Part shown: positions 23,772 to 62,905 of the stretch, one piece after another
Layout of the letters: the number at the start of each line of letters is the position of its first letter
Position numbering within the stretch: position 1 is the stretch's first letter
NCBI GenBank assembly: GCA_049322215.1
Contig: JBMORU010000001.1
Coordinates: 65,357 to 129,356 of the forward strand
Length of the DNA: 64,000 nt
Reading direction: 5' to 3'
Source: Patescibacteria group bacterium
Lineage (GTDB): Bacteria > Patescibacteriota > WWE3 > UBA101185 > UBA10185
Made by a program: the position numbers and the translations under genes
The notes under the pieces: model-generated
Database searches by the model: none
What the model was told of the DNA's origin: nothing
What the model saw: the letters and a program-made list of their open reading frames with translations, nothing else

Positions 23772-23811
23772 ACACTAATAATAAACACACGAAGAGAGTT
23801 TTACAATACAG

Positions 23812-24597: not shown

Positions 24598-25743
24598 ATG
24601 AAACAACCAAAAGTATGCTTAGTTCATGATTATTTAGTTCAATATGGTGGTGCAGAAAAAACTCTTGAGGCTTTTTTGGAGATTTTTCCACAAGCAGACA
24701 TATTTACAAGTACATACAAAGCCGTGGCTATGTCTTCTATAATAAACAAAAGCAAAGTTGTAACAATAGGAAATACAACTAACAAGTTAAAAACAAAAAT
24801 CCCCATACTCTCAAAATATCTAACTTTTTTAAATCCAATAGGATTTGAGAATTTTGACTTAAGTAACTACGATATTGTAGTTTCAGACAGTAGTTCATAT
24901 GCCAAGGGTGTTATAACAAAACCAGAACAACTGCATATAAGCTACATACACACACCCCCCAGATTTTTATATAAGTATTCTGTTGAAAGTACAAAAAGAG
25001 ACAACTGGTACTATAAACCAATTGTGAAGTATATTGATCACTACTTAAGAATTTGGGACTTTCTTGCCGCACAAAGAGCTGACTATATAGTATGCAATTC
25101 TTATGAGGTTAAAAAAAGAATAGCTAAATTTTATAAACGCGATGCAACTGTAATATATCCTCCTGTAGAAGTAGAAAAGGCAGCCAAAAAACATGAATTT
25201 GATAACCTAGAAGAACCATTTTATTTAACTGTAGGCCGATTATCGGCATATAAAAATGTGGATATGCTTGTAGAAGCATTTAATTTACTTGGGATAAGAC
25301 TAAAGGTTGTGGGTACAGGTTCGGAGGAAAAGAGATTAAAAAAAATGGCTAAACCAAATGTTGCAATTTTAGGAAAAGTATCTGAAAAAGAAAAACACAG
25401 ATTATTGGCACAATGCAAAGGGTTTTTATTTCCTGTAGTAGAAGAAGACTTTGGAATTGGTGTAATAGAAGCTATGGCGCACGGAAAACCAATACTAGCA
25501 CACAAATCTGGAGGTCCCCTAGAAACAATAAGAGATGGTATAGATGGTATGTTTTTTGATTCTATAAAAATAGAGCATTTTATGAATCAGGTGAAAAAGT
25601 TTGACGAAAACATAAGGCAAAATAAGTATGATTCAGAAAAAATAAAAGCGCATGCAATGCATTTCAACAAAAACAGGTTTAAGCAAGAATTTGAAGAGTT
25701 TGTAAAAGAAAAATGGGAAGGAAAAAATAGCCCTGAGAAATAA
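24598..25743 (+). CDS. Glycosyltransferase family 4 (GT-B, retaining)
   Basis: 381 aa. C-terminal EDFGIGVIEAMAHGKPILAHKSGGPLETI matches the GT4 E-x7-E region. Confidence 0.8.
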   Translation: MKQPKVCLVHDYLVQYGGAEKTLEAFLEIFPQADIFTSTYKAVAMSSIINKSKVVTIGNTTNKLKTKIPILSKYLTFLNPIGFENFDLSNYDIVVSDSSSYAKGVITKPEQLHISYIHTPPRFLYKYSVESTKRDNWYYKPIVKYIDHYLRIWDFLAAQRADYIVCNSYEVKKRIAKFYKRDATVIYPPVEVEKAAKKHEFDNLEEPFYLTVGRLSAYKNVDMLVEAFNLLGIRLKVVGTGSEEKRLKKMAKPNVAILGKVSEKEKHRLLAQCKGFLFPVVEEDFGIGVIEAMAHGKPILAHKSGGPLETIRDGIDGMFFDSIKIEHFMNQVKKFDENIRQNKYDSEKIKAHAMHFNKNRFKQEFEEFVKEKWEGKNSPEK

Positions 25744-25794: not shown

Positions 25795-26154
25795 CTAAGG
25801 TTTTCCTTCTGGTACCACAAAAATTTGCCACTCTATTAAACGTGTGTAGTAGCTTGCGCTGCCGTCGGGAATTGTTTCCTTTTTGACGAATACTTCGAGC
25901 GTATAGGCTCTAAAGCTTTTTTCAGCACCAAATTCTACAATGTTGTGACGAATTCCCACACCCACCAGCTGTCCAGCAGTCCAAAAAGTGCTGTGATTAG
26001 CGTCTTTTTGAACATTGCCGGTAAAACCAATGGCCATAAGTGCTATTAGTAAAAGCACTAGTATTGTGACCAAAACTTTTTGAGCAGACGAGCTTAGTTT
26101 GTACATTTCTGCTCCTTTAGCTTGAAAACTTGCGACGCCGTTTTGTGTCTGCAA
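25795..26154 (-). CDS. hypothetical membrane-anchored protein
   Basis: ORF with one TM segment. It probably starts at the internal Met (MYKLSS, about 26106) to avoid overlap with the upstream gene. Confidence 0.4.
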   Translation of the reverse strand: MQTQNGVASFQAKGAEMYKLSSSAQKVLVTILVLLLIALMAIGFTGNVQKDANHSTFWTAGQLVGVGIRHNIVEFGAEKSFRAYTLEVFVKKETIPDGSASYYTRLIEWQIFVVPEGKP

Positions 26155-26413
26155 AGTAATTCCAAATTCGCGCCATCAGCAAAATTGGCTGATAATACAA
26201 GGGCAAACGAATTTGATCAGGATAAAATCGCAGGTGGTCACTACTATCTCCGTTTACAGCAACCCAAGCCATTTTGTTACCCAATAAAGGAAACGACTCC
26301 ATTAAACTCCCCTCAAAAGGATAAGATAAATCGTTATAACCATAATCGGGAACTAATATAGACTTGATCACTGTTACGTTAGTACCAACAGGTAATTCCA
26401 ATAAAATTCTCAT
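26117..26413 (-). CDS. hypothetical protein (98 aa)
   Basis: ORF only. No family recognised. Confidence 0.35.
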   Translation of the reverse strand: MRILLELPVGTNVTVIKSILVPDYGYNDLSYPFEGSLMESFPLLGNKMAWVAVNGDSSDHLRFYPDQIRLPLYYQPILLMARIWNYFADTKRRRKFSS

Positions 26414-26490
26414 TTGAACTTAACCTCCATCAAGAATGTGTAGGTTATTATACTATAGGTTTGAACTGGGGTAAATGATAAAATAAAGCG

Positions 26491-30279: not shown

Positions 30280-32061
30280 TTGTATAATGCCCCCATGAAG
30301 ATTTCAAAATTCGCAGAATACCTTTTAAAACTAGAAGAAACATCAAAAAGACTTGAAATTACTGAAATATTAAAAAAACTTTTAGAAGAACTTGATCCAA
30401 ACGAAACAAGAAACGCAATAAATTTAACTTTAGGCCAATTAAAAGCTCCCTTCGACTCTGAACGCTTCAACATAGCAGAAAAAATGATGATGAGAATAAT
30501 TGAAAACTCTTACGAAACTAAGTCGGAAAAAATTAAAGAGCTATACAAAAATACAGGAGACTTAGGTAGTGTTGCTTTTGAACTTTCAGAAAATCATAAA
30601 ATAGCAAATATAGAACTAAACGAGGTATATGAAAAATTGCTAGAAATTGCAAAATTCGAAGGAACAGGTTCTCAAGAAAAAAAAGTATCCCATTTATCTG
30701 CCCTGCTAACTAAAGTTGACGGATTATCGGCAAAATTCATTATAAGAATGGTTTTAGGTACAACCAGACTAGGTTTTACAGCTTTAACTATAGTAGATGC
30801 CCTATCTAGCTTAGCTGCAGGAGATAAATCGCTAAAAAAGAAAATTGAAGGCAAATATAATGTACACCCTGATATTGCTTTAATTGCTGAACTAATTAAA
30901 AAAGAGGGGATAAAAGGGATTAATAGCATTGCAATGGAACCAGGAGTACCTTTATTGCCACAAAAACCACAAAGAATTGGTTCTCCAGAAGAAATCATTG
31001 AAAAAATGGGTGGTGAAGTTTGGGCGGAGTTTAAATTTGATGGGACAAGAGTGCAACTTCATTTAGATAGAAGTAAAAAAGTGTCCTCAACAGCACTCGA
31101 CTTATTTAATAGCGTAAGTGATACAACTTTTATAAAAACATTTACAAGAAATTTAGACGAAACCACGCATCAGTTTCCAGATATTATTGAAGCAGCAAAT
31201 AAGTTTATTAAAGCAGACTCAGTAATACTTGATGGGGAAGCAATTGGTTTTGATAAAAACACAGGTGAGTTTTTAAATTTTCAGGAAACCATACAAAGAA
31301 AAAGAAAACACGATATAAAATATATAGCTAAGCAAATACCCCTTAAATATCTTGTTTTCGATATTCTTTACCTTAACGGTAAATCGCTTTTAGACACTCC
31401 TCTAGTACAAAGGAGAGCACGAATTAACGAAATTATAAAAGAAAACGAAATTATAGAAATAGACAAGCACTTAACTACGGATGATCCGAAAAAACTGGGA
31501 AATTTTTTTAATGAAGCAAAAGAAAAAAGTTTAGAGGGCCTTGTAGTTAAAAATCCAAACACTGGCTACCAAGCAGGGGCAAGATCTTTTGCGTGGGTAA
31601 AACTAAAGAGATTAGAAGAAAGCAACCTAGATGACACAATAGATTGTGTTGTACTCGGCTATTACAATGGAAAAGGAGCACGCGCAGATTTTGGTATAGG
31701 CGGATTCTTAGTAGGTGTTTATGACAAAAAAAATGAAATCTTTAAAACAGTTTCAAAAATTGGAACAGGGTTGAAAGACGAAGATTGGGTTTATTTAAAA
31801 AAAGAATGCGACAAAATTAAAATAAGTAATGCCCCAGCTAATGTTGAATTTCCAAAAGAACTTGAGCCTGACGTATGGACCTCACCAAAAATTGTTGTAG
31901 TTATAAGAGCCGATGAAATATCAAAATCATCACAACATACAGCAGAATATGCACTAAGGTTTCCACGGTTAATGGAGTTTCGTAAAGATAAAGCACCTGA
32001 AGATGTGACTACTGTGGAAGAAATAAAAAGTTTATATAAAATCCAAACAGAAAAAAAGTAA
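30280..32061 (+). CDS. lig: ATP-dependent DNA ligase (Lig1/archaeal-eukaryal type)
   Basis: 593 aa. Adenylation motif I AEFKFDGTRVQ (KxDG) and OB/ligase motifs further downstream. It may start at the internal MKISKF. Confidence 0.85.
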   Translation: MYNAPMKISKFAEYLLKLEETSKRLEITEILKKLLEELDPNETRNAINLTLGQLKAPFDSERFNIAEKMMMRIIENSYETKSEKIKELYKNTGDLGSVAFELSENHKIANIELNEVYEKLLEIAKFEGTGSQEKKVSHLSALLTKVDGLSAKFIIRMVLGTTRLGFTALTIVDALSSLAAGDKSLKKKIEGKYNVHPDIALIAELIKKEGIKGINSIAMEPGVPLLPQKPQRIGSPEEIIEKMGGEVWAEFKFDGTRVQLHLDRSKKVSSTALDLFNSVSDTTFIKTFTRNLDETTHQFPDIIEAANKFIKADSVILDGEAIGFDKNTGEFLNFQETIQRKRKHDIKYIAKQIPLKYLVFDILYLNGKSLLDTPLVQRRARINEIIKENEIIEIDKHLTTDDPKKLGNFFNEAKEKSLEGLVVKNPNTGYQAGARSFAWVKLKRLEESNLDDTIDCVVLGYYNGKGARADFGIGGFLVGVYDKKNEIFKTVSKIGTGLKDEDWVYLKKECDKIKISNAPANVEFPKELEPDVWTSPKIVVVIRADEISKSSQHTAEYALRFPRLMEFRKDKAPEDVTTVEEIKSLYKIQTEKK

Positions 32062-32065
32062 AAAA

Positions 32066-32108
32066 AGCCTTTGATTAATGAAGTAAAATATCACTAATCA
32101 AAGGCCTA
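32066..32108. terminator. Bidirectional hairpin between convergent genes (ligase / M15 peptidase)
   Basis: GCCTTTGATTAATGA...TCACTAATCAAAGGC inverted repeat with one mismatch. Confidence 0.35.
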
Positions 32109-32221
32109 ATGCTATGAGGCTTTCACTACAATGTAGACACTGTAACGAAAAGTCAAAGCTATGTAACGCTTGAGTAAAACGTTAGGGTATATTTTGAATG
32201 TACTCAACTTTAGCCTCTCCC

Positions 32222-33217
32222 TTATTGCCCACTAACGCAGAAAGGCGTGTATTGTAGCCCATTTTGCGCGTACAGCCATTCGGTAAAAGACAACTGTGCA
32301 TTTTGCTCTTGTGCTTGTTTAAAGGCTTGAGCGTTTTCAGTGCCAATCCAGCGCCAATGCCAAGTTTCTGCATTTACGCCAGTTTTGCACTCATCACCCA
32401 TAGGATAAGGCATTACAAACCCAAACAAATGAGCATTGCTCTGCAAAAAATTTCCGGCAGGGCTTTGCGCAAAATCATTGGTCCAACCCGCAGCACCATT
32501 AAAATCTTCAATGCAAACGCCACTACTACAGTAGTTTGTAGTGAAATCTAACGCCAAACCAGTATGGTGCTCGGTATGCCCTGGACGCAGCGAGTATTCA
32601 TCTGCCAATGGATCTAGTCCAAGCCAGTACTCGTAAGCTGTTCTCTGACGTTCAACCCCACGGCAAGCTGTGCGCAAAGCCAGGTCAATTCCTTGTTCCT
32701 TGGCAGCGGTTACCAGCGCAGTCAAATCGGGAAGCATATCGCTTACAATATACTGTGCATCCAAAACCTCGCGAATACCTGTAGCAGATGCAGGCTGTAA
32801 ATGCGCTGCAACCGACAGGTCACCGTCAGGACATTGAATTTGCTCAGGAGTTAAACGATAATGTCGATCAACAACAATCAAACGAAAGTCGTTTACATAA
32901 ACCGAGTCCTGCACAGCATCAGGGTAACGCGCCCATTCTGTAAGTGTGGGTGCTGTGATGCTGTCTACCGTAGATGAAGTATCTGCAGGCAACTCATTAG
33001 TGCTATTTTCTGCAGAAATACTGTCACCTTCAACAACAAGGGTTGGTGTAGCAATGGCAAGGGTTTTTTTACTTTCTCCCATAGGTGCAACTAAAGTTTC
33101 CTCTTCACTTCCTGGAAACTCAGGCGCCGATAGAGAAGATAAAACAAAGCGTCCCACTAAAACCACGACTACAATGCCCACTAAAATCGCGACATGTTTT
33201 GCTTTCAAGTATTTCAC
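32222..33217 (-). CDS. Membrane-anchored D-alanyl-D-alanine carboxypeptidase-like zinc peptidase (M15/VanY, LAS superfamily), GC-richer
   Basis: 331 aa. N-terminal TM, S/T/E-rich linker, then PGHTEHHTGLALDF (H-x6-D metal site) and a later H. Confidence 0.6.
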   Translation of the reverse strand: MKYLKAKHVAILVGIVVVVLVGRFVLSSLSAPEFPGSEEETLVAPMGESKKTLAIATPTLVVEGDSISAENSTNELPADTSSTVDSITAPTLTEWARYPDAVQDSVYVNDFRLIVVDRHYRLTPEQIQCPDGDLSVAAHLQPASATGIREVLDAQYIVSDMLPDLTALVTAAKEQGIDLALRTACRGVERQRTAYEYWLGLDPLADEYSLRPGHTEHHTGLALDFTTNYCSSGVCIEDFNGAAGWTNDFAQSPAGNFLQSNAHLFGFVMPYPMGDECKTGVNAETWHWRWIGTENAQAFKQAQEQNAQLSFTEWLYAQNGLQYTPFCVSGQ

Positions 33218-33320
33218 TTGTCACACTCCTTATGTTCAATATTTATTAGAGATTTGAGCAATTATACGGTAACTTAAGCTTAATTTCAACACTATAGGTC
33301 TAGTTGATAGAATCCCCCAC

Positions 33321-33755
33321 TTGCAAACAAATGTAAAAAAAGCGTATTATTTACACATGGATAATGAAACAAACAATACTGCCGAGATAGTAAATACAAA
33401 ATCAACCATAGAAACAAACAAACCATATAAAATGGATCAAAACATGGAGGCCGCTTTTGCATACATACTTACTCCAATAACGGGCTTTGTTGTATACCAT
33501 TTCGAAAAAGAAAATAAGTTCATTAGATTTCACGCAATGCAATCAATTGTATTTGGCATAGCTTCAGTAATAGCATTAACAATTGCAGATGCTTTAGTAG
33601 CTGTATTCATTGGGATAATACTGTCACCAATTGTTACCATGGTAGTTTTCGGCCTTTGGCTCTTTTTAATGTGGAAAGCTTACAATAACGAGGAATTTGA
33701 ATTGCCGTTTTTAGGTCAAATTGTTCGCGACATATTAAAACCAAAAAGCAAGTAA
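33321..33755 (+). CDS. hypothetical membrane protein (144 aa)
   Basis: ORF with 3 hydrophobic segments. Confidence 0.45.
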   Translation: MQTNVKKAYYLHMDNETNNTAEIVNTKSTIETNKPYKMDQNMEAAFAYILTPITGFVVYHFEKENKFIRFHAMQSIVFGIASVIALTIADALVAVFIGIILSPIVTMVVFGLWLFLMWKAYNNEEFELPFLGQIVRDILKPKSK

Positions 33756-37360: not shown

Positions 37361-37939
37361 ATGCAAAATAAATCATACAGCATTGCATTTTTAGGAGGAG
37401 CTGCCTGGCGTGAAGATGACGAACCCTACAAAGATGCGTTTAACGTAGCAAAAGCTGTTGCCGAGGCAGGCTTTCATGTGGTAAATGGGGGCGGTCCCGG
37501 TGTAATGAGAGCTTCTACAAAAGGGGCACATGCCGGAGGTTGCAATGACGTGTTAGCTATAACTTATCATCCAAACAAACCAAAAAGACACTATGAAGGT
37601 GTGGACCCAAAAAACGATTATGATTTTGAAGTAAAAACCCTAGACTACTTTGATAGAACCAAAGTAATGTTACAAACAACTGAAGCACACATTGTATTTA
37701 GAGGAAGTATCGGCACACTAAGTGAGTTTGGAATGACTTGGATAAGCTCATGGATACACGATCCTCACAATAAACCCATTATTTTATATGGGTCCTTTTG
37801 GGATGCATTGCTAGATACAATTGAATCAACTATGAAAATAGACTTAGGAGAAAGAAATATGTTTGAGATATGCACTTCTCCAGAAGAGGTTGTTTCCTAC
37901 TTAAAACAAACGCTAACAAGCACAAGCACACTACTGTGA
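37361..37939 (+). CDS. LOG family protein (TIGR00730; cytokinin riboside 5'-monophosphate phosphoribohydrolase-like)
   Basis: 192 aa. GGGPGVM and GSIGTLSE motifs. Confidence 0.75.
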   Translation: MQNKSYSIAFLGGAAWREDDEPYKDAFNVAKAVAEAGFHVVNGGGPGVMRASTKGAHAGGCNDVLAITYHPNKPKRHYEGVDPKNDYDFEVKTLDYFDRTKVMLQTTEAHIVFRGSIGTLSEFGMTWISSWIHDPHNKPIILYGSFWDALLDTIESTMKIDLGERNMFEICTSPEEVVSYLKQTLTSTSTLL

Positions 37940-37951
37940 AAGCACTAAAAG

Positions 37952-38860
37952 TTGAAGTATAAAGGCATAAATCGTATACTCTTAACAATGCCTAAGACTC
38001 ATATTCACGCGCACTATGAAGATATTCAACGATTAGAAGAAAAAGCACTAGAAGTGCGAAAATCAATAGTTGAAATGCTTGTAAAAGCAAAATCAGGACA
38101 CTCCGCAGGACCCTTAGGCATGGCTGATATTTTCACCACGCTATACTTTCAAGTTTTAAATATTGATCCAAAAAACCCACAAGATCCTGAAAGAGATAGA
38201 GTTATACTTTCTAACGGACATATTTGTCCAGTAATGTATGCCACATTAGCTCATAAAGGATTTTTTCCACTAGAAGAGCTTAATACTTTCAGAAAAATTA
38301 GTAGCAGACTACAAGGGCACCCTCACTATGGCGAACTACCTGGAATAGAAAATTCCAGCGGCCCGCTAGGACAAGGATTATCACAAGCGGTCGGAATAGC
38401 GCTTGCTGCAAGCATAAACGACGCGCATTACGAAGTTTTTTGCTTAGGAAGTGACGGCGAATTAAATGAAGGACAAACTTGGGAAGCAGCAATGTTTGCA
38501 GGCAATAACCATTTACACAATTTAACATGGATAATAGACAGAAATAATATTCAAATCGATGGTTACACTGAGCATGTTATGCCCTTACAACCTCTAAGAG
38601 ATAAACTTGAAGCTTTTAACTGGTACGTTTTAGAAATTGATGGACATAACATTGAAGAAATAATTAACGCTTGTAGAATGGCTAGGTCAGTATTTGAGAG
38701 ACCTGTTGCAATAATTGCACATACCATACCAGGCAAAGATTTAGAAACCATGGAGTATAAATTTGAATGGCACGGCAAGCCTCCAAGTTCTAAAGAAGCC
38801 AAAGAAATGCTGAAAGAACTTAGAACGCTTGGCGGAAAAATTAGGAGTGAACATGACTAA
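37952..38860 (+). CDS. Transketolase, N-terminal (TPP-binding) subunit
   Basis: 302 aa. SGHSAGPLGMADI, GHPxxG and GDGELNEG motifs. Confidence 0.85.
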   Translation: MKYKGINRILLTMPKTHIHAHYEDIQRLEEKALEVRKSIVEMLVKAKSGHSAGPLGMADIFTTLYFQVLNIDPKNPQDPERDRVILSNGHICPVMYATLAHKGFFPLEELNTFRKISSRLQGHPHYGELPGIENSSGPLGQGLSQAVGIALAASINDAHYEVFCLGSDGELNEGQTWEAAMFAGNNHLHNLTWIIDRNNIQIDGYTEHVMPLQPLRDKLEAFNWYVLEIDGHNIEEIINACRMARSVFERPVAIIAHTIPGKDLETMEYKFEWHGKPPSSKEAKEMLKELRTLGGKIRSEHD

Positions 38861-42409: not shown

Positions 42410-43063
42410 TCAGGCATCAAAACTAAACGCCGATGGGCAAATTTCATTTAACATACACTTAGCACACTCAGGTTTTCGTGCTTTACATACATAGCGCCCA
42501 TGTAATACCAGAGACCCAGAAAAGTTTCTCCAATACTCTTTAGGCAACAATTTTATTAGTTCATTTTCTATTTTTACGGCATTGGTCTCAGTAGTTAAAC
42601 CTAACCTATTAGACACACGCGTTACATGTGTATCAACAACTATTCCCTCTGCAATATCCCAAATTTCCTGCAAAATAACATTTGCAGTTTTTCTTGCTAC
42701 CCCAGGCAGTTTTATAAGCTCTTTAATAGTTCTTGGTAATTTGCCATTAAAGTCAGTTACCATCATTTGACCCATTTTAATTAATCTTTCTGCTTTCCCT
42801 TTATGAAAATTTACACCTTTTATATCGTTGGTAATTTCCTGTAAATCGGCGTTAGCAAAATCTTCCCATGTTTTGTATTTTTTAAATAAGGTAGAAGTTA
42901 TTTCGTTTACTTTTTTATCGGTTGTTTGAGCAGATAATGCAACAGCAACTGCAAGTTGCAATTCGTTTTCATGGTTTAACTCTGTAACAGGGTTAGGATG
43001 TTCTTTTTTTAATAATTGTGCAGCTTTTAAAGCTCTTTCGTTTTTTGATAAGTTTTCAGTCAT
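42410..43063 (-). CDS. nth: Endonuclease III (Nth), HhH-GPD with 4Fe-4S loop
   Basis: 217 aa. HhH motif LPGVARKTANVIL. C-terminal C-x6-C-x2-C-x5-C. Confidence 0.85.
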   Translation of the reverse strand: MTENLSKNERALKAAQLLKKEHPNPVTELNHENELQLAVAVALSAQTTDKKVNEITSTLFKKYKTWEDFANADLQEITNDIKGVNFHKGKAERLIKMGQMMVTDFNGKLPRTIKELIKLPGVARKTANVILQEIWDIAEGIVVDTHVTRVSNRLGLTTETNAVKIENELIKLLPKEYWRNFSGSLVLHGRYVCKARKPECAKCMLNEICPSAFSFDA

Positions 43064-43144: not shown

Positions 43145-44176
43145 TTATTCATTGGTTTCGTAAGGAACAACCTTAACCCAAATACGCGAATCCGGATTGG
43201 CAAAGTTTGTGAAAGGCACGGCGTTAACGTAGGTGGAACCGAGTTGCAATACATCTACAACGTTGCCCACATTCCCTGCATCGTCTGTATGAAAGCCGTA
43301 CACCGTAACCGCTAGTGCGTAACAACCGCCTTGAGGTTCAATGGCCTGCACGTTAATTTTGATGTTATCACTAGCTTCAGTTCCCCAGCGAATAGGGTTT
43401 GCAACAATTGGGTCAGAACTGAGCAAAGTAACACCAAAACCTAAACCACCCCAACTTGGCGAAATTGGCGAATGCGGATTATGCCAAGCCACCTTACCAT
43501 TAGGTACAATGCATGTTTCAGACATTGGAACCTCGGCAGGAGCCTCCGCATAGGAACATAAAGCGCTCGAACCAACAAAAAGCTCTTCTACGGTAGCTAC
43601 ATCTTCAAGAGACCAATCGTGGTATGTACGTGCTTCGGCAATCCAACCTGTAAGGGCAATACCGACGGCACCGGTGCCATTGATTTGGGTTTCTTCCGCG
43701 GTAATGTGTAGCATGCCGTCTACTGAGCGAGTCCACACGCGTACTTCTGCACCTTCGGGCACATAGTACTTAGTAGCATCATCGGTAGAAGCACCACACA
43801 CCGAACCATTGCGGCTGTGCGAAAGATAAACAACAGCATTTTCAGTAATTGTTGCAGTGTGCGTGGAAGTTATCACACTAGCAATAGAAACCCCATCAAG
43901 TTCGGTTAAATCCGTATCTTCTTCAGCGGTGGTTTCAGGCTCCGGAGTAACTTCAACAATACGCGTTACTTCTACTTCCTCATAAATTAGCGTAACGGGA
44001 ATTTCACCTTCTTCCGGGGCATCAATGACCACTCGCGTTACCTCAACTTGACGCACCACAACTGGCGCATTGGTTTTGGAAATTAAGGATAAACCTAAAA
44101 CCAAGTTCCCCAATAGCGAAACCATTAGCAACACCGCAAAAACCAGCGCAGCTGTTTTCCAATATTTAGTTTGCAT
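43145..44176 (-). CDS. Secreted/membrane-anchored hypothetical protein (343 aa), GC-richer
   Basis: Signal anchor, then an E/T/V-rich linker. No family recognised. Distinct composition. Confidence 0.5.
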   Translation of the reverse strand: MQTKYWKTAALVFAVLLMVSLLGNLVLGLSLISKTNAPVVVRQVEVTRVVIDAPEEGEIPVTLIYEEVEVTRIVEVTPEPETTAEEDTDLTELDGVSIASVITSTHTATITENAVVYLSHSRNGSVCGASTDDATKYYVPEGAEVRVWTRSVDGMLHITAEETQINGTGAVGIALTGWIAEARTYHDWSLEDVATVEELFVGSSALCSYAEAPAEVPMSETCIVPNGKVAWHNPHSPISPSWGGLGFGVTLLSSDPIVANPIRWGTEASDNIKINVQAIEPQGGCYALAVTVYGFHTDDAGNVGNVVDVLQLGSTYVNAVPFTNFANPDSRIWVKVVPYETNE

Positions 44177-44247
44177 TAGAAAATCTCTCCTTATGTGCTT
44201 ATTTGTTAATGGAAGGATTATAACACACTATAGGGTCATTTGGATGC

Positions 44248-48169: not shown

Positions 48170-48246
48170 TGGTGCCAACGGGTGGAATCGAACCACCGAC
48201 CTGACGCGTATGAAACGTCCGCTCTAACCGACTGAGCTACGTTGGC
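48170..48246 (-). tRNA. tRNA-Met (anticodon CAT), elongator-type acceptor; could alternatively be a lysidine-modified Ile2
   Basis: Reverse complement GCCAACGTAGCTCAGTCGGTTAGAGCGGACGTTTCATACGCGTCAGGTCGGTGGTTCGATTCCACCCGTTGGCACCA. Anticodon loop TTCATAC. Pairing 1G:72C. Confidence 0.8.
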
Positions 48247-48318: not shown

Positions 48319-49569
48319 TTAAAACTTAGGAAAATTATCACGCAAACTATTTAGCAAAAAGGTATTAAACTCGGCACTAGCTAAAATTAAAACTTTTGAT
48401 AACGCTGGTAACCTTTTTTTGTCGAAGGCATCTAAAAGTAACAAATAGGCAAAAGGCAAAAAATCTAAAGTGTATCGAGGGCCAAGTTGAACCCAACCCG
48501 GCCAATAATAAGTAAGTAAAAAAGCTAAAACAAACAAAACAGATAATAAGGACTTAAGATTTTCCTTTTTTTTATAGTTAACTTTAAGCAAATATAAAAA
48601 TATAGGCGATACTACAAAAAAACTTGTTCCAGGATAATTAACTTTGAAGTACGGATATTTCAAAATGAAGGTATTACCAAATAAAGTTTCTTTCTCTAAT
48701 AAAATTGGATCTATGCTTTTCAAAAAATAATAGTAAAAATTTGTTGGAATATTGCGTAGTTGAAATAAACCATAGTTAATTTGCTCAAAACGGGCATCAT
48801 CATTCATAGTCACTTCATTACTGGTGTAGTAGCCATTGTCAAATGGGTTTTGAAATCTCGCGTAGTTGTAGCTTAAAAGCAACAATCCAGATAAAACTAC
48901 AGGTAGAATTAACATGACTATATCCTTGAATTTTTTGTCAAAAGAGTATTTGCTTAAAAAAATCGAAAGAACAAAGAAAATTACTGTAAAACCAGCAGTA
49001 AATCTAGACATAAATATAAACCCGTAAAATAAACCAATTAACCAATATCTCTTTTTACTTTTATATTCATAAATTGCTAAAAATTGAAATAAAACGGCAA
49101 TCGCTTGCACAAAATTCCAGCTCCATGGAATATAAGCCACAACAACATAAACGCTAGAGAAAATAAAAGCAAAAGCCAAATATATTGAATCATATAATTT
49201 GTAACCAAACTTCATAGCTAAAGATAAGCAAAGCAAAAAAATACCAAAAGTCAAAAATACCTGTAGATAACCTTGCAGAAATAAGGAATCAGCAAAAGCA
49301 TCCCAAAGGCCAACAAAGGGCATTAAAAGCAATGCAGGAAAAGGAGCTAAATGCCAAAACAGTTTACCGTCAAAAAAAACAATATCTTGTAGCCCACCTG
49401 GAATTTCTAAAAAACTTAATGATCCGGCCAAAAAGGCACGGGCTAAATAAGAGTACTGATTATTTTCTACATAGGTAAAATTAGTAATAATCACTTGAAC
49501 AAATTTACCTAATGAAAGTATCAAAATTAATACACCCCAAACACTGGTGGGTAGTTTTATCTTGTACAT
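48319..49569 (-). CDS. Polytopic membrane protein, putative GT-C-fold glycosyltransferase (ArnT/PMT-like)
   Basis: 416 aa with 10+ TM helices and an aromatic-rich composition. The family assignment is tentative. Confidence 0.4.
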   Translation of the reverse strand: MYKIKLPTSVWGVLILILSLGKFVQVIITNFTYVENNQYSYLARAFLAGSLSFLEIPGGLQDIVFFDGKLFWHLAPFPALLLMPFVGLWDAFADSLFLQGYLQVFLTFGIFLLCLSLAMKFGYKLYDSIYLAFAFIFSSVYVVVAYIPWSWNFVQAIAVLFQFLAIYEYKSKKRYWLIGLFYGFIFMSRFTAGFTVIFFVLSIFLSKYSFDKKFKDIVMLILPVVLSGLLLLSYNYARFQNPFDNGYYTSNEVTMNDDARFEQINYGLFQLRNIPTNFYYYFLKSIDPILLEKETLFGNTFILKYPYFKVNYPGTSFFVVSPIFLYLLKVNYKKKENLKSLLSVLFVLAFLLTYYWPGWVQLGPRYTLDFLPFAYLLLLDAFDKKRLPALSKVLILASAEFNTFLLNSLRDNFPKF

Positions 49570-49653
49570 AAATACTATATTAACCTAATATAATTGGATT
49601 TAAAAAACTTCTTTGGTTGCGGGGCCCGGATTTGCACCGGGACCTTCAGATTA

Positions 49654-49727
49654 TGAGCCTGACGAGGTACTATTCCTCCACCCCGCGTCGTTAAGTAAAG
49701 AATGCATATTACAATGCGTGGGTAGTG
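49654..49727 (-). tRNA. Initiator tRNA-fMet (anticodon CAT), C1:A72 mismatch, CCA encoded
   Basis: Reverse complement CGCGGGGTGGAGGAATAGTACCTCGTCAGGCTCATAATCTGAAGGTCCCGGTGCAAATCCGGGCCCCGCAACCA. It closely parallels the E. coli tRNA-fMet ends (CGCGGGGTGGAG...CCCCGCAACCA). Confidence 0.85.
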
Positions 49728-51268: not shown

Positions 51269-51643
51269 TTACCGCACAGGCATAGCATGATGTAAAAAGC
51301 GCACCCCCGTGCGATCACTGTAGAGTAGCTTTTTCAATTCAGCAATTGCATGGGCATCTGATAGAGTTGCATCGCGATCACCCACAAAAATACCAATATC
51401 ATCTTCAGTGATGCCAAAAAAGAAAATAACCTTTTCGGCATTTTGGGACACTTGATGAACATGGGAAAATTTGGTGCGATACATTCTATCAGGATTTTTT
51501 TCTTCGGCCATTTGAAACATTAGGTTTAATACCAAAAACAAACCAGCTATAAACCTAAATGGTGCTTTAACTGTAGCGTAATAAAAACGGAGTTGCCTTG
51601 TAGCTACATCCTCAACATACGCGGTCATCGCAAAATTGGGCAT
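51269..51643 (-). CDS. hypothetical membrane protein (124 aa), GC-richer
   Basis: ORF with one or two TM segments and a distinct composition. Confidence 0.45.
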   Translation of the reverse strand: MPNFAMTAYVEDVATRQLRFYYATVKAPFRFIAGLFLVLNLMFQMAEEKNPDRMYRTKFSHVHQVSQNAEKVIFFFGITEDDIGIFVGDRDATLSDAHAIAELKKLLYSDRTGVRFLHHAMPVR

Positions 51644-51739
51644 TTCTTTCTCCTTTTATCTAACAGGGATTTGATAGCGCTATTATATTATAAGTTTTAG
51701 GTAAAGGCTATAGGGCACTGATGATAAAATAAAGTAAGC

Positions 51740-51815
51740 TGGTGGGTGATCCTGGGCTCGAACCAGGGACCGCTCGTGTATAAGACGAGTGCTCTACCAA
51801 CTGAGCTAATCACCC
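51740..51815 (-). tRNA. tRNA with anticodon TAT (UAU), formally tRNA-Ile reading AUA
   Basis: Reverse complement GGGTGATTAGCTCAGTTGGTAGAGCACTCGTCTTATACACGAGCGGTCCCTGGTTCGAGCCCAGGATCACCCACCA. Perfect acceptor, D and T arms, 5-bp anticodon stem CTCGT/ACGAG and loop CTTATAC. Confidence 0.75.
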
Positions 51816-57558: not shown

Positions 57559-60500
57559 TTAAAGATTATTCATTGGAGGTTCGGGAAAGTCATTTATACA
57601 TTCCTCAGGATCATCTGACTCACAGTGAACCGGATCTTGTACTGCATTTCTTAGCATGCTTCCCCAAACATGAATTTGCTCGGGACCGGCAGCACCAGAA
57701 TCAGCGCCACGACCTTGACCTTGTGGAGGGTCTTTTTCGTTAGATGCAATTTGATCTAGGGTCATAATAGAACCAATATCTGTCAAAGGCTCTAATTCTT
57801 GCGGAGGTGCAAACGGAAGCACAACCTCTAACGAGCACTTACCAACAGCAATTCCTCGACGTGCTTCAACAAAGGTATAGGCATCTAAGTCAGTTTCAAT
57901 ATCACCTAAACAAGCCGTGTCCCCATCCTCACCGTAACCTTGGGGTTCATCTTGGCTTCTATGCGTGCACGAAGTTACAATAAAGCCATCTGGTACAGAA
58001 GAGTAGTCACCATCTTCACACACGGCGCTTGCGCTAACACCATAGTCACTACATGAACATGTCCCAGCAGTACATGGAGGCCCGTCTAAAGTACAACTAT
58101 TTTCACAAGGAAACTCACTGTCTGCAGGACAACCCCCACCGCTCCAACTACCCCATGTATAAGGGTTACAGGTAGAGTTAGCAGGAATATCGTTACCCCA
58201 GACTCCAAATACCGATAGCAAGTTTGCAAAAAACTGTAAAACAGCACCAAAAATAGATTCGTTAAAGAATAGCCCTTGTGCTATTGGAGGTACTTCCTCG
58301 GTTAAGTATTTATACCCCTCAGATCCTCTATGAGTTTCATCACGAATAAACCATTCTTCATTAGTTGGATCTGTGGAACCAGTAGAGTGGTTGTAGGTAC
58401 AAAGTGATTGCTGCAAACCAATACGATACCAACCTCTGTTGCCTCCTTGGGGCAACTCAGTGTCAGGATTAAAGGCGTTGCCTTCGGTAGAATCTATACA
58501 CTGCACTTGAAATGGACTATGCCAAATCATAGAAGGAGGACCTCCCCATTGTGTATGAGAAACAGCCTGGTTTGAATACAAAATATTAGCCCAAGGCAGC
58601 GAATAAATACCTTGAGGTCCTGCAGGGTGTACAACATAGTTTAGTCCAAAAAATGGGCGGTCAGCTTTTGTACCATCTTCAAACGGAGCAATTCTCCATA
58701 CAGGATCTGCATTATTAATAAAAGAGTCATTAGTTGCCTCATTAAATTCTTTTGTTTGATAAGTTTTCTCTAAAGCACCACCTTCGTTGTATAGCAAAGC
58801 CACAGGAAAGTAGCGGCAATCCAAACTGTAACCACTTAATCCTGGAATATTAGGATCATTTTCGTCATAGGCTAAACGATCATCACAAGCATCATCCCAG
58901 GGAGGTTGAATTTGATCTAACATTACAACACCGCCACTATCGGTTTCGCAAGCGGGAACTGCGCTTGGGTCACTCATTAAGCCATAGCGTTCTTCCCACT
59001 CAAATGGACCTGCCCCACCAACGGCAGGACCCCCACATGTTTGACCGTTACGACCTTCATTTTCTTCTAAAGCAATTGGGTATGTGCATGCTGCGTTTCT
59101 TCTACATAAGGGTAATTCCTCTTCATCTATAGTTTCGTTCCTTGGGGGCGTAATATCATCTCGATAATTGTACCCGTAACCTGTTAATAAATAATTGGCT
59201 CCGTAGTACGAGGTTGCGTCTGTAGAATTATAAACACCATTTCTACCTTCTAACGGGTCTTTAGAAGTAACTTCATTATTTTGAGGAGGACATAATTGAG
59301 TAGCGGGGTCACAATCTGGGTCATCGGTAGGGGCGCCAATATACGAATCATCTACATCTTCTTTTAATAATTCAACGTTATAAACTACTGACGGAGTATT
59401 AGTAAAGCCATCTAAATCAAAGTTTTGCTCATTACATGTTAAATACTCAACCCTATCTACATACGATAAATCTCCCGGACAGGGCACTTGAGGTAAACCT
59501 CCGGGCAATGGCTCAACGTCTAAATTAATTGGCTGATAAATTTGAATATCGTGATCTAAGCTTACTTTTAAAATTTCCTTAGGTTCTCCGAAAGCGCAAA
59601 AAGCTATGTAGTTAGAGTTGTCAAAACTATCTGGAGTTCTATAGGTAGTTAATTCAAAATTACCGTTTTCATCTGTAAAAACAGTAGCTTCAGAATTTAC
59701 TATATGTCCTGCGTTTCTTTTACCAGTACCATAGTCCCAACTACCCTGATATGCAGTTACCGATACACCCGTTAACTTTTTATTAAGAGTTTCTGTTCCA
59801 TCACTTTCTACAAATTTTCTGGTAGAGCGCACACGACCTTTTATAACCACAGGCCATTCACAACTGGTATCGCTGTAATTACCTGTAGGCAAAGCACCTG
59901 ATGCTCTAACACCGAATTCTCCAATATAAAATAACTTTCCTAAAGCCGCTGCTTGTTGAGAAGCAAGCGCCATATTATTTTTTTCTGTAATCGTATAATA
60001 GTGACCCGATGCAATATCTATATTTGGATTGTCGTTACTTACAGTAAAATCAGCGGGGCTTTCAGCAGAAAGAGCACTATCCCCTAAGGTACAAGGCTGA
60101 CCCGACATTTGCCCAATTCCAACCAATTTAGACGAATCTACAGATTTTAATGCCGCTGCCATATCAGCAGCCCACTCAGCATAAAATGGTAAACAACCAC
60201 CTAAACCACCGCAGTGAGGCTCATTTAAAAGTTCGTAAGCATAAACACCGTTGCTACCAATAAAGTTGGCAGCAAGGTCTTGTGCATACGAATAATACGA
60301 CCCAACATAGTTGGGGCCTGTAATTTGAGATCTATAACCACCTGCGTACCAATTGGTTGGGTTAGATCTTACATTTCCATCAATACCTAATTCACAAGTG
60401 TTAGCAAAGTCACAAATTACAACAATCAAACGAATACCATAAGTGTTATATGCTAAATCAGCAATTTGCCTTGCAATTGGGTCGTTACCGTTTCTGTCAG

Positions 60501-60894
60501 GACTACCAAAAACACGCACCATATTCACACCACAACTTTGCAAATAGGCTAAAGCTTGGTCTGCAGCACCTGAGTTAAACAAATTAGGAACATTAACGCC
60601 TACCCAGTCAAAAGCCCCTGCATTGTTAGCTAAAGCCTGACAAGTATCGTCGCCTAAATAAAATGAAAACTCATCCTGACCAAAAACACCTGGACCACCT
60701 AATTCATGAGAATACTGCCAATATAAAAAGCCACGGGCTCCAATAGCTGCCATAGCCTGCATTTCGGCTTCCACGGTTGAAGAGCGCGCATCAGCGTACA
60801 CAGGTTTTACGTCAACGAATAGTGAAAAAACACTAAAAATAAAGGCGTTGACCAATATTATTAAAAAATATCGCGCGAATATTTTCATATTCAA
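57559..60894 (-). CDS. Giant secreted glycoside hydrolase family 5 (GH5) protein with an about 780-aa Cys/Gly/Asp/Pro-rich C-terminal extension
   Basis: 1111 aa. Signal peptide, GH5 catalytic motifs VRVFGSP (Arg), ELLNEPH (acid/base in NEP), GHYY and IGEFG (nucleophile). Then a long low-complexity Cys-rich region. GC-richer than flanking DNA. Confidence 0.75.
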   Translation of the reverse strand: MNMKIFARYFLIILVNAFIFSVFSLFVDVKPVYADARSSTVEAEMQAMAAIGARGFLYWQYSHELGGPGVFGQDEFSFYLGDDTCQALANNAGAFDWVGVNVPNLFNSGAADQALAYLQSCGVNMVRVFGSPDRNGNDPIARQIADLAYNTYGIRLIVVICDFANTCELGIDGNVRSNPTNWYAGGYRSQITGPNYVGSYYSYAQDLAANFIGSNGVYAYELLNEPHCGGLGGCLPFYAEWAADMAAALKSVDSSKLVGIGQMSGQPCTLGDSALSAESPADFTVSNDNPNIDIASGHYYTITEKNNMALASQQAAALGKLFYIGEFGVRASGALPTGNYSDTSCEWPVVIKGRVRSTRKFVESDGTETLNKKLTGVSVTAYQGSWDYGTGKRNAGHIVNSEATVFTDENGNFELTTYRTPDSFDNSNYIAFCAFGEPKEILKVSLDHDIQIYQPINLDVEPLPGGLPQVPCPGDLSYVDRVEYLTCNEQNFDLDGFTNTPSVVYNVELLKEDVDDSYIGAPTDDPDCDPATQLCPPQNNEVTSKDPLEGRNGVYNSTDATSYYGANYLLTGYGYNYRDDITPPRNETIDEEELPLCRRNAACTYPIALEENEGRNGQTCGGPAVGGAGPFEWEERYGLMSDPSAVPACETDSGGVVMLDQIQPPWDDACDDRLAYDENDPNIPGLSGYSLDCRYFPVALLYNEGGALEKTYQTKEFNEATNDSFINNADPVWRIAPFEDGTKADRPFFGLNYVVHPAGPQGIYSLPWANILYSNQAVSHTQWGGPPSMIWHSPFQVQCIDSTEGNAFNPDTELPQGGNRGWYRIGLQQSLCTYNHSTGSTDPTNEEWFIRDETHRGSEGYKYLTEEVPPIAQGLFFNESIFGAVLQFFANLLSVFGVWGNDIPANSTCNPYTWGSWSGGGCPADSEFPCENSCTLDGPPCTAGTCSCSDYGVSASAVCEDGDYSSVPDGFIVTSCTHRSQDEPQGYGEDGDTACLGDIETDLDAYTFVEARRGIAVGKCSLEVVLPFAPPQELEPLTDIGSIMTLDQIASNEKDPPQGQGRGADSGAAGPEQIHVWGSMLRNAVQDPVHCESDDPEECINDFPEPPMNNL

Positions 60895-62098: not shown

Positions 62099-62905
62099 TC
62101 ACTTACAATAGTCACTCATTTTCCCACTTTGGGAATCCGAAGAAGGCAGTGATAATACTTTCTCTCTATCTGCAGGAGATATCCAATCGAACCAACAAAC
62201 AGCATATTGATAAGTGTCGGAAAGATGGCTGGCAGCCCAAACCGAATCTTTTGAAGATTCGTTTTTTTCTCTGTAGTCGTATACTCCCCAGTCCAAAAAG
62301 GTATTTGTTCCGTCTTTACTCGAGCCGTTTTTTGTTGTTCCTACCGCAGTGGCGATAACTTCTCCTTGTTTAACTTCGATTGGCGGATAGACTTGAGTGG
62401 TTCTTGAATCCATTTCTTTTGGCATCGGAAATTTTTCAGCAATTTCTTGAAATTTAGGAGAAAGCGTCAATAGATGTCCAACTCGATAGCGAATTCCGCA
62501 AGGGTGCTCAAAGTCGAATGTGTACTGGATATCACCTGTAATAACGGGGTACCTTGCGCCAGCAATCACCTTGGCATCGATGGGTGCTGTTACCAAAATG
62601 TCAGTTGGGAGAGAGTTATCAAATCTGAAACCTCCGTGGGCTTTGAATTCACCTCCGCGGATCTGTCCAGGGTAAAGTATTGAGGTTGCTTTGCTAATTT
62701 CAATAGGCAAAGGAAAGATAAACGGGTCTGGGCAAGTTGTTTTCTCACTTTCTCTTTCTATAGATACTGGATACGCATTACTATTACTAACAATGGCAGG
62801 CGCACGATTCTTAAACGACTTTAGAGTAACTAAACCAACAATAAGAATTACTACAACGGTAATTAAAACGGGAATAACTGCCAATCCCTTTTGTTTCTTC
62901 ATCAC
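62099..62905 (-). CDS. Membrane-anchored secreted hypothetical protein (268 aa), GC-richer
   Basis: N-terminal TM (LAVIPVLITVVVILIVGLVTL). No family recognised. The stop lies 4 nt from the tRNA-Asn 3' end. Confidence 0.45.
   Translation of the reverse strand: MMKKQKGLAVIPVLITVVVILIVGLVTLKSFKNRAPAIVSNSNAYPVSIERESEKTTCPDPFIFPLPIEISKATSILYPGQIRGGEFKAHGGFRFDNSLPTDILVTAPIDAKVIAGARYPVITGDIQYTFDFEHPCGIRYRVGHLLTLSPKFQEIAEKFPMPKEMDSRTTQVYPPIEVKQGEVIATAVGTTKNGSSKDGTNTFLDWGVYDYREKNESSKDSVWAASHLSDTYQYAVCWFDWISPADREKVLSLPSSDSQSGKMSDYCK

Follow-up and report, generated by a model that had tools for sequence, protein, structure and literature searches.

GC-rich genes with a shared Shine-Dalgarno context and an upstream CCTATA(G) box between conserved core genes of a Patescibacteria chromosome

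Introduction

In the framework of Lawrence and Ochman, compositionally atypical genes of bacterial chromosomes, including those of "genomic islets", are reportedly regarded as acquired genes that undergo amelioration. Most of the recent acquisitions and orphans reported in bacteria are AT-richer than their host. Phages carry "morons", genes of deviant composition that form autonomous units together with a promoter and a terminator. Patescibacteria have tiny genomes, depend on host cells, and contain a large share of orphans, while the route by which they gain new envelope or host-interaction functions is poorly understood.

In this study, we analyzed a 64-kb stretch of a Patescibacteria chromosome (hereafter, the window), with a focus on a gene for a 343-aa orphan protein; this one window, with about 55 ORFs, is the base of all statistics on its genes. 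The ORFs are annotated by NCBI; the contig, of 1,112,869 bp, includes the proteins MFZ5424230.1 and MFZ5424262.1 (locus tags ACOZAO_00345 and ACOZAO_00505).

GC content and codon usage

The GC content of the whole window was 36.9%, and the background ORFs (n = 49) had a mean GC of.352 (sd.029) and a mean GC3 of.263. The original prediction had singled out five ORFs as GC-richer than a mid-30s % background, and this was borne out: all five coordinate pairs corresponded to exact ORFs on the minus strand, with GC contents of 41.5-46.8% versus 35.2% (sd 2.9). The individual values (z vs background) were.466 for 15274-15969 (3.9),.461 for 32222-33217 (3.7),.468 for 43145-44176 (4.0),.416 for 57559-60894 (2.2), and.415 for 62099-62905 (2.1). 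The step in GC fell at the ORF ends for 43145/44176 and 15274/15969 (100-nt resolution). The largest GC-rich block of the window (4.3-11 kb) was the rRNA operon.

The per-gene GC3 and codon usage calculation proposed along with that prediction was performed conditional on the amino acid sequence and native codon usage, and revealed a GC3 excess in four ORFs: z 7.6, 4.3, 5.6, and 3.6 for 15274, 32222, 43145, and 62099, respectively. No excess was found in 57559 (GH5; z 0.2). The GC excess is real and has two causes: amino acid composition alone (the GH5 gene) and an added GC3 excess (the four others). In the VanY (32222-33217) and 343-aa (43145-44176) genes, codon usage and amino acid usage were both non-native, GC3 was nearer to the host value than GC1 and GC2, and the implied donor GC was about 50, 65, and 41-42% from GC1, GC2, and GC3, respectively. 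High expression was rejected as the cause of GC3, the genes for S1-like protein, FtsH, and transketolase (assumed to be highly expressed) having the lowest values (.20-.21).

The products had also been described as mostly signal- or anchor-bearing. An N-terminal hydrophobic anchor was present in four of the five named ORFs (all but the 231-aa protein) versus 15 of 49 background ORFs; however, this bias was marginal (Fisher p=.047) and faded when all atypical ORFs were considered (secreted or anchored in about 6/13 vs 13/41 others).

The 343-aa orphan gene

The 343-aa protein (43145-44176, minus strand) consists of an N-terminal TM anchor (residues 7-33), an acidic linker of VEVTR repeats, and a beta-rich, Cys-containing C-terminal domain. 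This and the 268-aa protein (see below), both originally listed as unknown, belong to no family in Pfam or NCBIfam; PHROG and PADLOC also gave no match for the 343-aa protein, and its sole match in searches of 5.8e9 and 1.84e9 proteins was itself. Sequence searches of the PDB at E up to 10 returned nothing for the 343-, 231-, and 268-aa proteins, and AlphaFold2 models built without an alignment were unusable (pLDDT 38.7 for the 343-aa and 45.4 for the 231-aa protein). The independent assembly L097 contained a 99.7% identical copy of the gene.

Upstream of the gene (minus strand), the Shine-Dalgarno (SD) context CATAAGGAG was located at 44187-44195, 8 nt before the ATG, followed by a putative extended -10 promoter, TGTTATAAT (44217-44225), read from the sequence, and by a CCTATAG box (44228-44234), which precedes the start by 58 nt and lies 13 nt beyond the 5'-3' exonuclease stop codon. 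No significant repeat was found in the flanks: the ATCCAAA/TATAATCC repeats were no better than chance (P=.22), and a target duplication was rejected accordingly.

The VanY gene

The gene at 32222-33217 (minus strand) had been assigned to an M15 peptidase, and the assignment holds: the product, a membrane-anchored M15B (VanY/LdcB-type) peptidoglycan carboxypeptidase of 331 aa, contains a Pfam VanY domain (3.9e-24; 85.4 bits against a gathering cut-off of 25). The NCBIfam subfamilies (LdcB, VanY-A/B, and VanXY) all scored 26-60 bits against cut-offs of 250-500, indicating no membership in them. When aligned with 4ox3 and 4mph, the protein retained PGHTEHHTGLALD and ETWHWRWIG, and the segments PGxxEHxTGLAxD (SEHxTGLAxD-like) and ExWHxR(Y/W)(I/V)G were conserved in the alignment to the LdcB/YodJ structures; we take the H and D in SxHxxGxAxD and the H in ExxH to be the zinc-ligand/catalytic residues of M15B. 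The enzyme is apparently an active LdcB/VanY-type cell-wall carboxypeptidase. The gene is under purifying selection, with 21 synonymous and 5 non-synonymous differences from the sister strain (L094).

The protein resembles the M15B enzymes from Bacillus subtilis (YodJ/LdcB; 4ox3), B. anthracis (4mph), and Streptococcus pneumoniae (LdcB; 4ox5) in the VanY domain, motifs, and N-terminal anchor, but shares about 30% identity with them, and differs from known LdcB/VanY in a Thr/Glu/Ser-rich linker of about 110 residues, an insertion of about 25 residues that contains Cys, and a C-terminal extension of 35 residues. The nearest relatives were 33-36% identical, and none exceeded 36%.

On the minus strand, CATAAGGAG was again found as SD (33226-33234), together with a sigma-70-like promoter, TTGAAA-17-TATAAT (33261-33289; 11/12 consensus match), and a CCTATAG box (33292-33298) immediately upstream of the -35, which is kept in the sister strain. 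A 26-nt imperfect direct repeat (21/26; plus strand) flanked the VanY insert, its left copy (32051-32076) overlapping the DNA-ligase stop codon and its right copy (33326-33351) lying immediately upstream of the DUF4870 gene start; the empirical P was about 3e-4 to 7e-4 compared with random/gene-boundary pairs.

The 231-aa gene and further atypical ORFs

The most atypical ORF (15274-15969, minus strand; GC3.49) encodes a helical 231-aa orphan protein with no signal peptide, which matched itself alone in protein searches. CATAAGGAG served as the putative SD (15978-15986, minus strand), a CCTATAG box (16027-16033, minus strand) abutted the TATAAT, and a terminator hairpin with 24-nt arms followed by a T-run was found 3' of the gene (15209-15263, minus strand). 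According to these consensus matches, the unit carries a promoter, an SD, and an intrinsic terminator of its own; in composition, it is unlike either neighbor.

Seven atypical ORFs were found beyond the five named. A four-TM protein of about 135 aa (19110-19517, plus strand; GC3.485) is SD-led, its CCTATAG box lying at 19078-19084. Two small SD-led ORFs (25795-26413, minus strand; GC3.36-.375), encoding 98 aa (26117-26413) and 103 aa with a TM anchor (25795-26106), are preceded by CCTATAG-TATAAT at 26453-26459. A 124-aa ORF (51269-51643, minus strand; GC.403) is likewise led by an SD and has its CCTATAG box at 51708-51714. Variant boxes accompany two other SD-led ORFs: CCCTATAA at a 128-aa ORF in the 16S-23S spacer (8202-8588, minus strand; GC.434), and CCCCATAGT at a 106-aa ORF (63133-63453, plus strand; GC.408). 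The remaining one (3728-4135) was absent from the earlier list.

The GH5 and 268-aa genes

The giant GH5 protein of the original prediction (57559-60894, minus strand), a secreted, Cys-rich, mannanase-like protein of 1111 aa, contains a GH5 domain above the gathering score (residues 110-347; Pfam 6.5e-8, 32.8 bits vs 23.5). As in GH5 endo-beta-1,4-mannanases (1qno, 3ziz), a Cellulase/GH5 domain with an aligned NEP motif is present, LLNEPHC aligning with ELGNEPRC of 1qno (NEP acid/base motif); the putative nucleophile Glu (IGEFG) was assigned by eye. In contrast to these enzymes, the GH5 domain makes up a quarter of the protein, and the similarity is weak (E about 1e-7). The gene is GC-rich via amino acid usage alone: codon usage was native in every 150-codon segment, and it therefore gives no sign of recent transfer. 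With a native-type, SD-less, promoter-proximal start, it is outside the atypical class.

The gene at 62099-62905 (minus strand), encoding a TM-anchored 268-aa protein, has neither an SD nor a box, and the GC3 excess is all that it has in common with the atypical class. It adjoins tRNA-Asn, which was rejected as an integration site because neither a copy of the tRNA 3' end nor an att-like repeat was found beyond 62099.

Shared Shine-Dalgarno sequence and CCTATA(G) box

Native genes of the window mostly look SD-less or leaderless, often appearing to start directly behind a -10 box. The 16S rRNA 3' end retains CCUCCU, an intact anti-SD. A consensus SD, (A/T)AAGGAG(A) at 5-9 nt before the start, was found in 8/11 atypical versus 3/43 typical ORFs (p=2.2e-5), some start codons being uncertain, and the threshold for atypical ORFs and the idea of the SD and box tests being derived from the same genes as tested. 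The 9-mer CATAAGGAG occurred three times in the window (expected 0.29), in every case at one of the three most GC-rich genes. CCTATA was present upstream of seven of the 12 atypical and none of the 43 typical ORFs, an association matched by 0/300 label permutations, and the complete 7-mer box was found at six genes, none of them typical (0/43). The combination of box, SD, and start occurred five times in the window (0.13 for permuted motifs).

The CCTATA(G) box sits 32-81 nt upstream of the atypical genes that carry it; since its distance to the -10 varies, a fixed core-promoter element was ruled out. The association of SD with accessory genes was repeated in the relatives (5/15 vs 7/152, p=.0016). 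The box is not a general Patescibacteria feature: across 1.4 Mb of DNA from other Patescibacteria, it showed no link to SD genes. In the library searched, no paper dealt with the use of SD-led or leaderless starts in Patescibacteria.

Synteny and searches for mobility and donors

A conserved backbone of about 27 kb was found in 10 related contigs; these relatives are labelled Saccharimonadales. The comparison covered the VanY, 343-aa, and 124-aa genes and 28437, with no loci for the 231-aa, 137-aa, 268-aa, and GH5 genes. The VanY site was empty in both relatives available (L003 and L081). The 343-aa gene was missing from all 10 contigs spanning the slot between the exonuclease and nth genes (exo|nth), which was empty in four relatives (L081, L082, L084, and L093) and filled by unrelated ORFs in L003, L085, L086/87, and L089/90. 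Because they are missing at the corresponding sites of relatives, the VanY and 343-aa genes are lineage-specific insertions. The 124-aa ORF had no homolog in the syntenic relatives.

The neighbors of the units include genes for MnmA, P-type ATPase, DNA ligase, Nth, 5'-3' exonuclease, and FtsH. No integrase, transposase, or recombinase was located beside any unit, and no att site was found; the sole tyrosine recombinase (50269), which is Xer-like, belongs to the core genes and is kept in all relatives. There were no long repeats, DGR-like pairs, shared flanking or 3' repeats, or inverted-repeat family in the window, and no paralogy among the GC-rich genes. Integron gene cassettes were rejected (no shared attC-like 3' repeat, own promoters, and a recombinase that is core Xer-like), as were targets of a diversity-generating retroelement (no direct repeat of at least 20 nt involving the ORFs).

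When eight atypical proteins were searched by tblastn against phage and plasmid collections, family-level VanY matches were obtained and nothing else. IMG/VR scans gave nothing for the 268-aa, GH5, and 137-aa proteins, INPHARED contained no relatives of the atypical proteins, and PHROGs and PADLOC gave no matches. No donor was identifiable, the closest homologs being self or family level at ≤36% identity. The best-hit taxonomy by which the original prediction was to be checked was not obtainable because the proteins are orphans.

Discussion

These results suggest that the 343-aa gene is probably one of a set of lineage-specific, compositionally foreign, self-contained units inserted between conserved core genes of a small, AT-rich Patescibacteria chromosome. 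Each unit would comprise its own sigma-70-type promoter region holding or adjoining the CCTATA(G) box, a leader of 30-80 nt bearing a consensus SD, a GC-richer ORF whose codon and amino acid usage would suit a genome with a GC content of roughly 45-50%, and, for one unit or more, an intrinsic terminator. Against this reading stand the lack of any donor, integrase, transposase, att site, or phage/plasmid relative and of a significant repeat flanking the 343-aa gene, as well as the AT-rich flanks with native-looking promoters right at the ORF ends, which would leave an imported segment hardly larger than the ORF. Since native SD-less starts presumably rely on AT-rich, unstructured start regions, imported GC-richer genes may be translated via classical SD/anti-SD pairing. 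The products, mostly orphans and about half of them membrane-anchored, may plausibly act in the cell envelope or in contacts between the epibiont and its host. The horizontal acquisition originally proposed is thus supported for VanY and the 343-aa gene (absence in relatives, non-native usage) and not for the GH5 gene (native synonymous usage, SD-less start); the notion of piecemeal uptake from diverse donors fits poorly because the atypical genes share the SD context and the box, which point to a common source or common regulation.

One-by-one acquisition from several unrelated GC-richer donors, with the SD and box arising later, either because insertions without a functional promoter and ribosome-binding site were lost or via a recruited host regulator, is in our view improbable. 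The encoded proteins are indeed unrelated to one another, the wide range of GC3 across the atypical genes (.34-.49) is expected for differing ages or donors, the position of the box relative to the promoter varies, and the same slot holds different cargo across relatives; however, an identical 9-mer at the three top genes and a 7-mer box at six genes would be hard to reach by independent convergence, and no donor is visible for any gene.

We also doubt that the genes are native and that their GC-richness is a by-product of extracellular-protein composition (rich in Gly, Ala, Pro, Asp, Thr, and Val; poor in Lys and Ile). This wholly explains the GH5 gene (GC.419 expected from its amino acids vs.416 observed) and roughly 40-60% of the excess in the VanY, 343-aa, and 268-aa genes, and four of the five named genes encode anchored or secreted proteins. 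As a general explanation, it is refuted by the GC3 excess persisting after amino acid conditioning (z 3.6-7.6). Furthermore, an ordinary AT-driven composition is found in six native proteins of the window that are anchored or secreted (FYMINK.305, GARP.188, GC.33-.38), the FYMINK/GARP values of the atypical genes being.18/.25 versus.31/.19 for native secreted proteins, so that secretion does not account for the GC content; the most atypical gene encodes no signal peptide, and the VanY and 343-aa genes are missing at relatives' sites. An artefact (a chimeric MAG, mis-binned reads, or spurious ORFs in non-coding GC-rich DNA) would suit the metagenome-assembled source and two proteins lacking any homolog, but is highly improbable given the independent Logan contigs of run ERR15087771 reproducing the junctions (ligase-VanY-DUF4870 98.2% and nth-343aa 99.7% identical), the predominantly synonymous substitutions in VanY, the 231-343-codon ORFs in 47% GC DNA with correct SD spacing, GC1>GC2, and TM anchors, and the NCBI annotation of the ORFs.

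Returning to the self-contained units, a more far-reaching reading, which we regard as unlikely, is that the box and uniform SD mark an undescribed species-specific gene-delivery or gene-control system. A single unsampled GC-richer mobile element or virus could possibly seed orphans into many intergenic junctions and leave no recombinase; alternatively, a dedicated regulator could read the box and govern a "foreign-gene regulon". Such a system would imply two translation-initiation regimes, an SD-less/leaderless core and SD-led acquired genes, and would make exo|nth a junction at which genes land repeatedly throughout the family.

The results further suggest that orphans are separable from the inherited core by three independent computable signals (GC3 excess, SD, and upstream box), and that some occupy junctions turning over repeatedly among relatives. 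If this applies genome-wide, it would provide a practical means of listing acquired genes, of improving start-codon and gene calling, and of searching for the vector or regulator.

In comparison with known systems, the units resemble genomic islets in their deviating GC at all codon positions, non-native codon usage, and absence from syntenic relatives, whereas they differ in being single genes with a shared cis-motif, no integrase or transposase, no att at the flanking tRNA, and no detectable donor. In contrast to most reported acquisitions and orphans, they are GC-richer than the host. The 231-aa unit is similar to phage morons in its deviant composition and in having (by consensus matches) a promoter, SD, and intrinsic terminator of its own, and the orphan status of the products is a further similarity; on the other hand, the units are not inside a prophage, are flanked by housekeeping genes, and have no PHROG, IMG/VR, or INPHARED relatives. 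The LdcB-like carboxypeptidase and the GH5 giant are ordinary in kind. New here are the SD and CCTATA(G) signature of the atypical genes, including those beyond the five named, and the SD-less or leaderless look of native genes.

Composition of the GC-rich ORFs

The original prediction that several ORFs are GC-richer than the background was borne out: the five coordinate pairs were exact ORFs (all on the minus strand), and the GC contents of 15274-15969 (231 aa), 32222-33217 (VanY), 43145-44176 (343 aa), 57559-60894 (GH5), and 62099-62905 (268 aa) were.466,.461,.468,.416, and.415, corresponding to z values of 3.9, 3.7, 4.0, 2.2, and 2.1, respectively, against the remaining 49 ORFs (mean.352, sd.029). 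At 100-nt resolution, GC stepped between ~.31 and ~.47 exactly at 43145 and 44176, and similarly around 15274-15969. This excess had two different causes. When the GC and GC3 expected of each gene were conditioned on its own amino-acid sequence and the native synonymous usage of the window, the amino acids of the GH5 giant predicted its GC in full (.419 expected vs.416 observed), and its GC3 was native (z 0.2) in every 150-codon segment. In contrast, a GC3 excess, proposed as the check on each gene, was retained in the other four: z 7.6 (231 aa), 4.3 (VanY), 5.6 (343 aa), and 3.6 (268 aa).

Secretion did not account for the shifted amino-acid composition of VanY and the 343-aa protein (FYMINK class.18, GARP class.24-.26), since six native anchored or secreted proteins (FYMINK.305, GARP.188) had the same AT-driven composition as cytoplasmic ones. 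High expression was rejected as the cause of the GC3 excess because FtsH, transketolase, and an S1-like protein, assumed to be highly expressed, showed the lowest GC3. rRNA accounts for the large GC-rich block at 4-11 kb, which has no connection with the five ORFs.

The window (GC 36.9%) contains one rRNA operon, six tRNAs, and ~55 ORFs. The 5S (4314-4427), 23S (4615-7630), and 16S (9572-11036) rRNA genes lie on the minus strand, and the ~1.9-kb spacer between 16S and 23S (7631-9571) contains tRNA-Ala (-), the oppositely oriented tRNA-Ile-GAT (+), and the ORFs 8202-8588 (a GC-rich orphan led by a Shine-Dalgarno (SD) sequence) and 8890-9303.

Encoded proteins

ORF 32222-33217 encodes a membrane-anchored VanY/M15B peptidase (Pfam 3.9e-24), and the GH5 domain of ORF 57559-60894, in which the NEP motif is present, is most similar to those of beta-mannanases. 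In the 343-aa protein, a TM helix at the N-terminus is followed by an acidic linker containing VEVTR(V/I)V repeats, which may resemble anchors of secreted proteins in Chloroflexota, and by a beta-rich domain. The 268-aa protein is TM-anchored, and the 231-aa protein is helical without a signal. The predicted secretion was confirmed only in part. NCBI entries for proteins of the window read 'MAG: hypothetical protein ACOZAO_00505 / _00345 [Patescibacteria group bacterium]' and place them on a 1,112,869-bp contig.

The 343-, 268-, and 231-aa proteins had no match in Pfam, NCBIfam, PHROGs, PADLOC, or PDB. In a word search of 5.8 billion proteins, the 343- and 231-aa proteins matched only themselves; for the 343-aa protein, exhaustive scanning of 1.84 billion representatives with phmmer gave the same result. 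VanY matched one 98% strain variant and otherwise only family members (33-36% identical), and phage, plasmid, and IMG/VR searches yielded nothing beyond such family-level matches; therefore, the taxonomy of best hits, also suggested as a check, gave no answer, and no donor was visible.

Both ligase-VanY-DUF4870 and nth-343aa were reproduced by independent Logan contigs (run ERR15087771), with identities of 98.2% and 99.7%, respectively. The 1.8% difference around VanY (L094; window 31395-33751) and the 0.3% around the 343-aa gene (L097; 42952-44220; one substitution and one in-frame Gly codon) reflect either several strains or uneven divergence along the genome. The 21 synonymous and 5 non-synonymous changes between VanY and its strain variant indicate that the gene is under purifying selection. 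A sigma-70 promoter was predicted for VanY (11/12 match), TGTTATAAT and AAGGAG were found upstream of the 343-aa gene, and the 231-aa gene has a predicted promoter, SD, and a strong terminator hairpin. Directly downstream of the latter, an AT-rich 161-aa ORF (14702-15187, -) resembled the RnlA/RNase LS HEPN toxin at scores under the Pfam gathering thresholds (E 6e-5 and 5e-4), and is possibly a toxin-like gene.

Variable junctions in a conserved gene order

Scanning genomes with transketolase and metagenomes with an Nth alignment yielded ~ten contigs sharing the gene order of the window from ~30 to 57 kb. The transketolase of the nearest genome in the species collection was only 62% identical, and the best syntenic relative carries the label Candidatus Saccharimonadales.

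The junction between DNA ligase and DUF4870, occupied by VanY in the window, measured 20-35 nt in two relatives (L003 and L081), and that between the 5'-3' exonuclease and Nth, the site of the 343-aa gene, was empty in four (L081, L082, L084, and L093); thus, both genes are lineage-specific occupants of variable junctions. The exonuclease-Nth junction has been filled repeatedly: three small unrelated ORFs in L003, three others in L085, and CheY-like genes in L086/87 and L089/90. An imperfect direct repeat of 26 nt (21/26; empirical P ~5e-4) brackets the VanY insert, with no comparable significant repeat in the flanks of the 343-aa gene.

GC-richness is not shared by all junction cargo. Between two tRNA-Met genes (48170-48246 and 49614-49687) that are adjacent in relatives (75-225 bp apart in L081, L084, L086, and L089) lies an AT-rich 416-aa gene (48319-49569, -; GC.305; seven-TM) with a native-style, SD-less start, a lineage-specific insertion with the opposite compositional bias. 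The junction between homologs of 37361-37939 and 37952-38860 (transketolase N-terminal subunit) is only 13 bp in the window (37940-37951), while every relative has 370-1100 bp of GC-rich (.44-.52) DNA in which no ORF was convincing (L003 7705-8575; L084 15964-17073; L085 16577-17116; L087 8666-9039; L081 15587-16177). These inserts were not alignable among relatives and had no Rfam match even at E<=1; that of L087 gave a more stable fold than its shuffled versions (z -4.4 and -3.4 for the two strands). They could be a structured RNA of a new type or decaying cargo.

Translation signals

Exactly three copies of the 9-mer CATAAGGAG were present in the window (0.29 expected), each 8-9 nt before the start of one of the three most GC-rich genes. 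A 6-mer SD preceded 8/11 ORFs with GC3 z>=2 (referred to as atypical) and 3/43 typical ORFs (Fisher p=2.2e-5), the threshold and the idea of the test being derived from these same genes. In related contigs, SD was found in 5/15 atypical vs 7/152 typical ORFs (p=.0016), mainly in junction cargo. The GH5 and 268-aa genes both lack SD, and TATAAT directly before the GH5 start is of the native style.

Typical genes mostly lack SD despite the intact canonical anti-SD of the 16S rRNA. In 15/43 typical genes and 0/11 SD genes, the start was preceded at 3-10 nt (peak 6-7 nt) by a -10-like hexamer, as in leaderless transcripts. In about a third of the mostly SD-less core genes, a TATAAT-like hexamer precedes the start codon by 4-7 nt (e.g. 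42410-43063, 24598-25743, 13615-14673, and 57559-60894), which suggests that leaderless mRNAs may be widespread in this lineage; a literature search found no paper on SD-less or leaderless starts in Patescibacteria. Atypical genes may need SD since initiation without it would rely on start regions that are AT-rich and free of structure.

CCTATA(G) box

In an unbiased comparison of k-mers in the 100 nt upstream of 12 atypical and 43 typical ORFs, CCTATA ranked first (7 vs 0, p=3.9e-6; equaled in 0/300 label permutations) and, together with CCTATAG (6 vs 0), stood above the SD k-mers. At a distance of 32-81 nt from the start, the box precedes the 231-aa, 137-aa (19110-19517, +), VanY, 343-aa, and 124-aa (51269-51643, -) genes and a two-gene small-ORF unit (25795-26413), with variants at 8202 and 63133. 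A core promoter element was excluded because its position relative to -10 varies (in the spacer, at -35, upstream of -35, or after -10); it may be an operator or the remnant of a common source. Box, SD, and start were combined five times in the window vs 0.13 for permuted motifs, and only at the control level in 1.42 Mb of other Patescibacteria DNA, except that the exonuclease-Nth cargo of L083 and L085 also opens with TATACTgCCTATAG plus SD.

A tRNA-Ile with anticodon TAT (UAU), rare in bacteria, lies directly upstream of the 124-aa unit (51740-51815, -), 26 nt before its CCTATAG box. The palindromic CCTATAGG, with the same core as the box, and after it a conserved ...TAACA...TGTCAAC stretch occupy the same place in four relatives, between the Xer-like recombinase gene and the tRNA-Met pair (L081 5427-5434; L085 2403-2410; L086 1326-1333; L089 4127-4134). 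This element is a candidate for a conserved promoter, operator, or small RNA.

Origin of the atypical genes

The best reading would be the insertion of foreign-looking, self-contained gene units into a conserved backbone. The original prediction of horizontal acquisition is supported in the case of VanY and the 343-aa gene, absent at the corresponding sites of relatives; plausible for the 231- and 268-aa genes; and not supported for the GH5 gene, given its native synonymous usage. Partial amelioration would fit VanY and the 343-aa gene (implied donor GC ~50% from GC1 and ~41-42% from GC3), and a more recent arrival would fit the 231- and 137-aa genes (GC3 implying ~48%), using Muto-Osawa and Lawrence-Ochman regression constants. 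A common source or common control of the atypical units, rather than wholly independent events, is favored by the SD context and box that they share. Three successive native-composition genes at 20557-24354 (-) with prepilin-like N-termini (a short basic leader, then a hydrophobic helix) are probably type IV pilus or competence pseudopilin genes, and might represent a DNA-uptake route for the acquired genes.

VanY retained the PGxxEHxTGLAxD and ExWHxR segments in alignment with LdcB/YodJ structures. Its scores fell far under the cut-offs of every named subfamily. In kind, the finding is ordinary horizontal acquisition, raised above the routine by truly orphan proteins, a recurrent junction, and a shared cis-signature.
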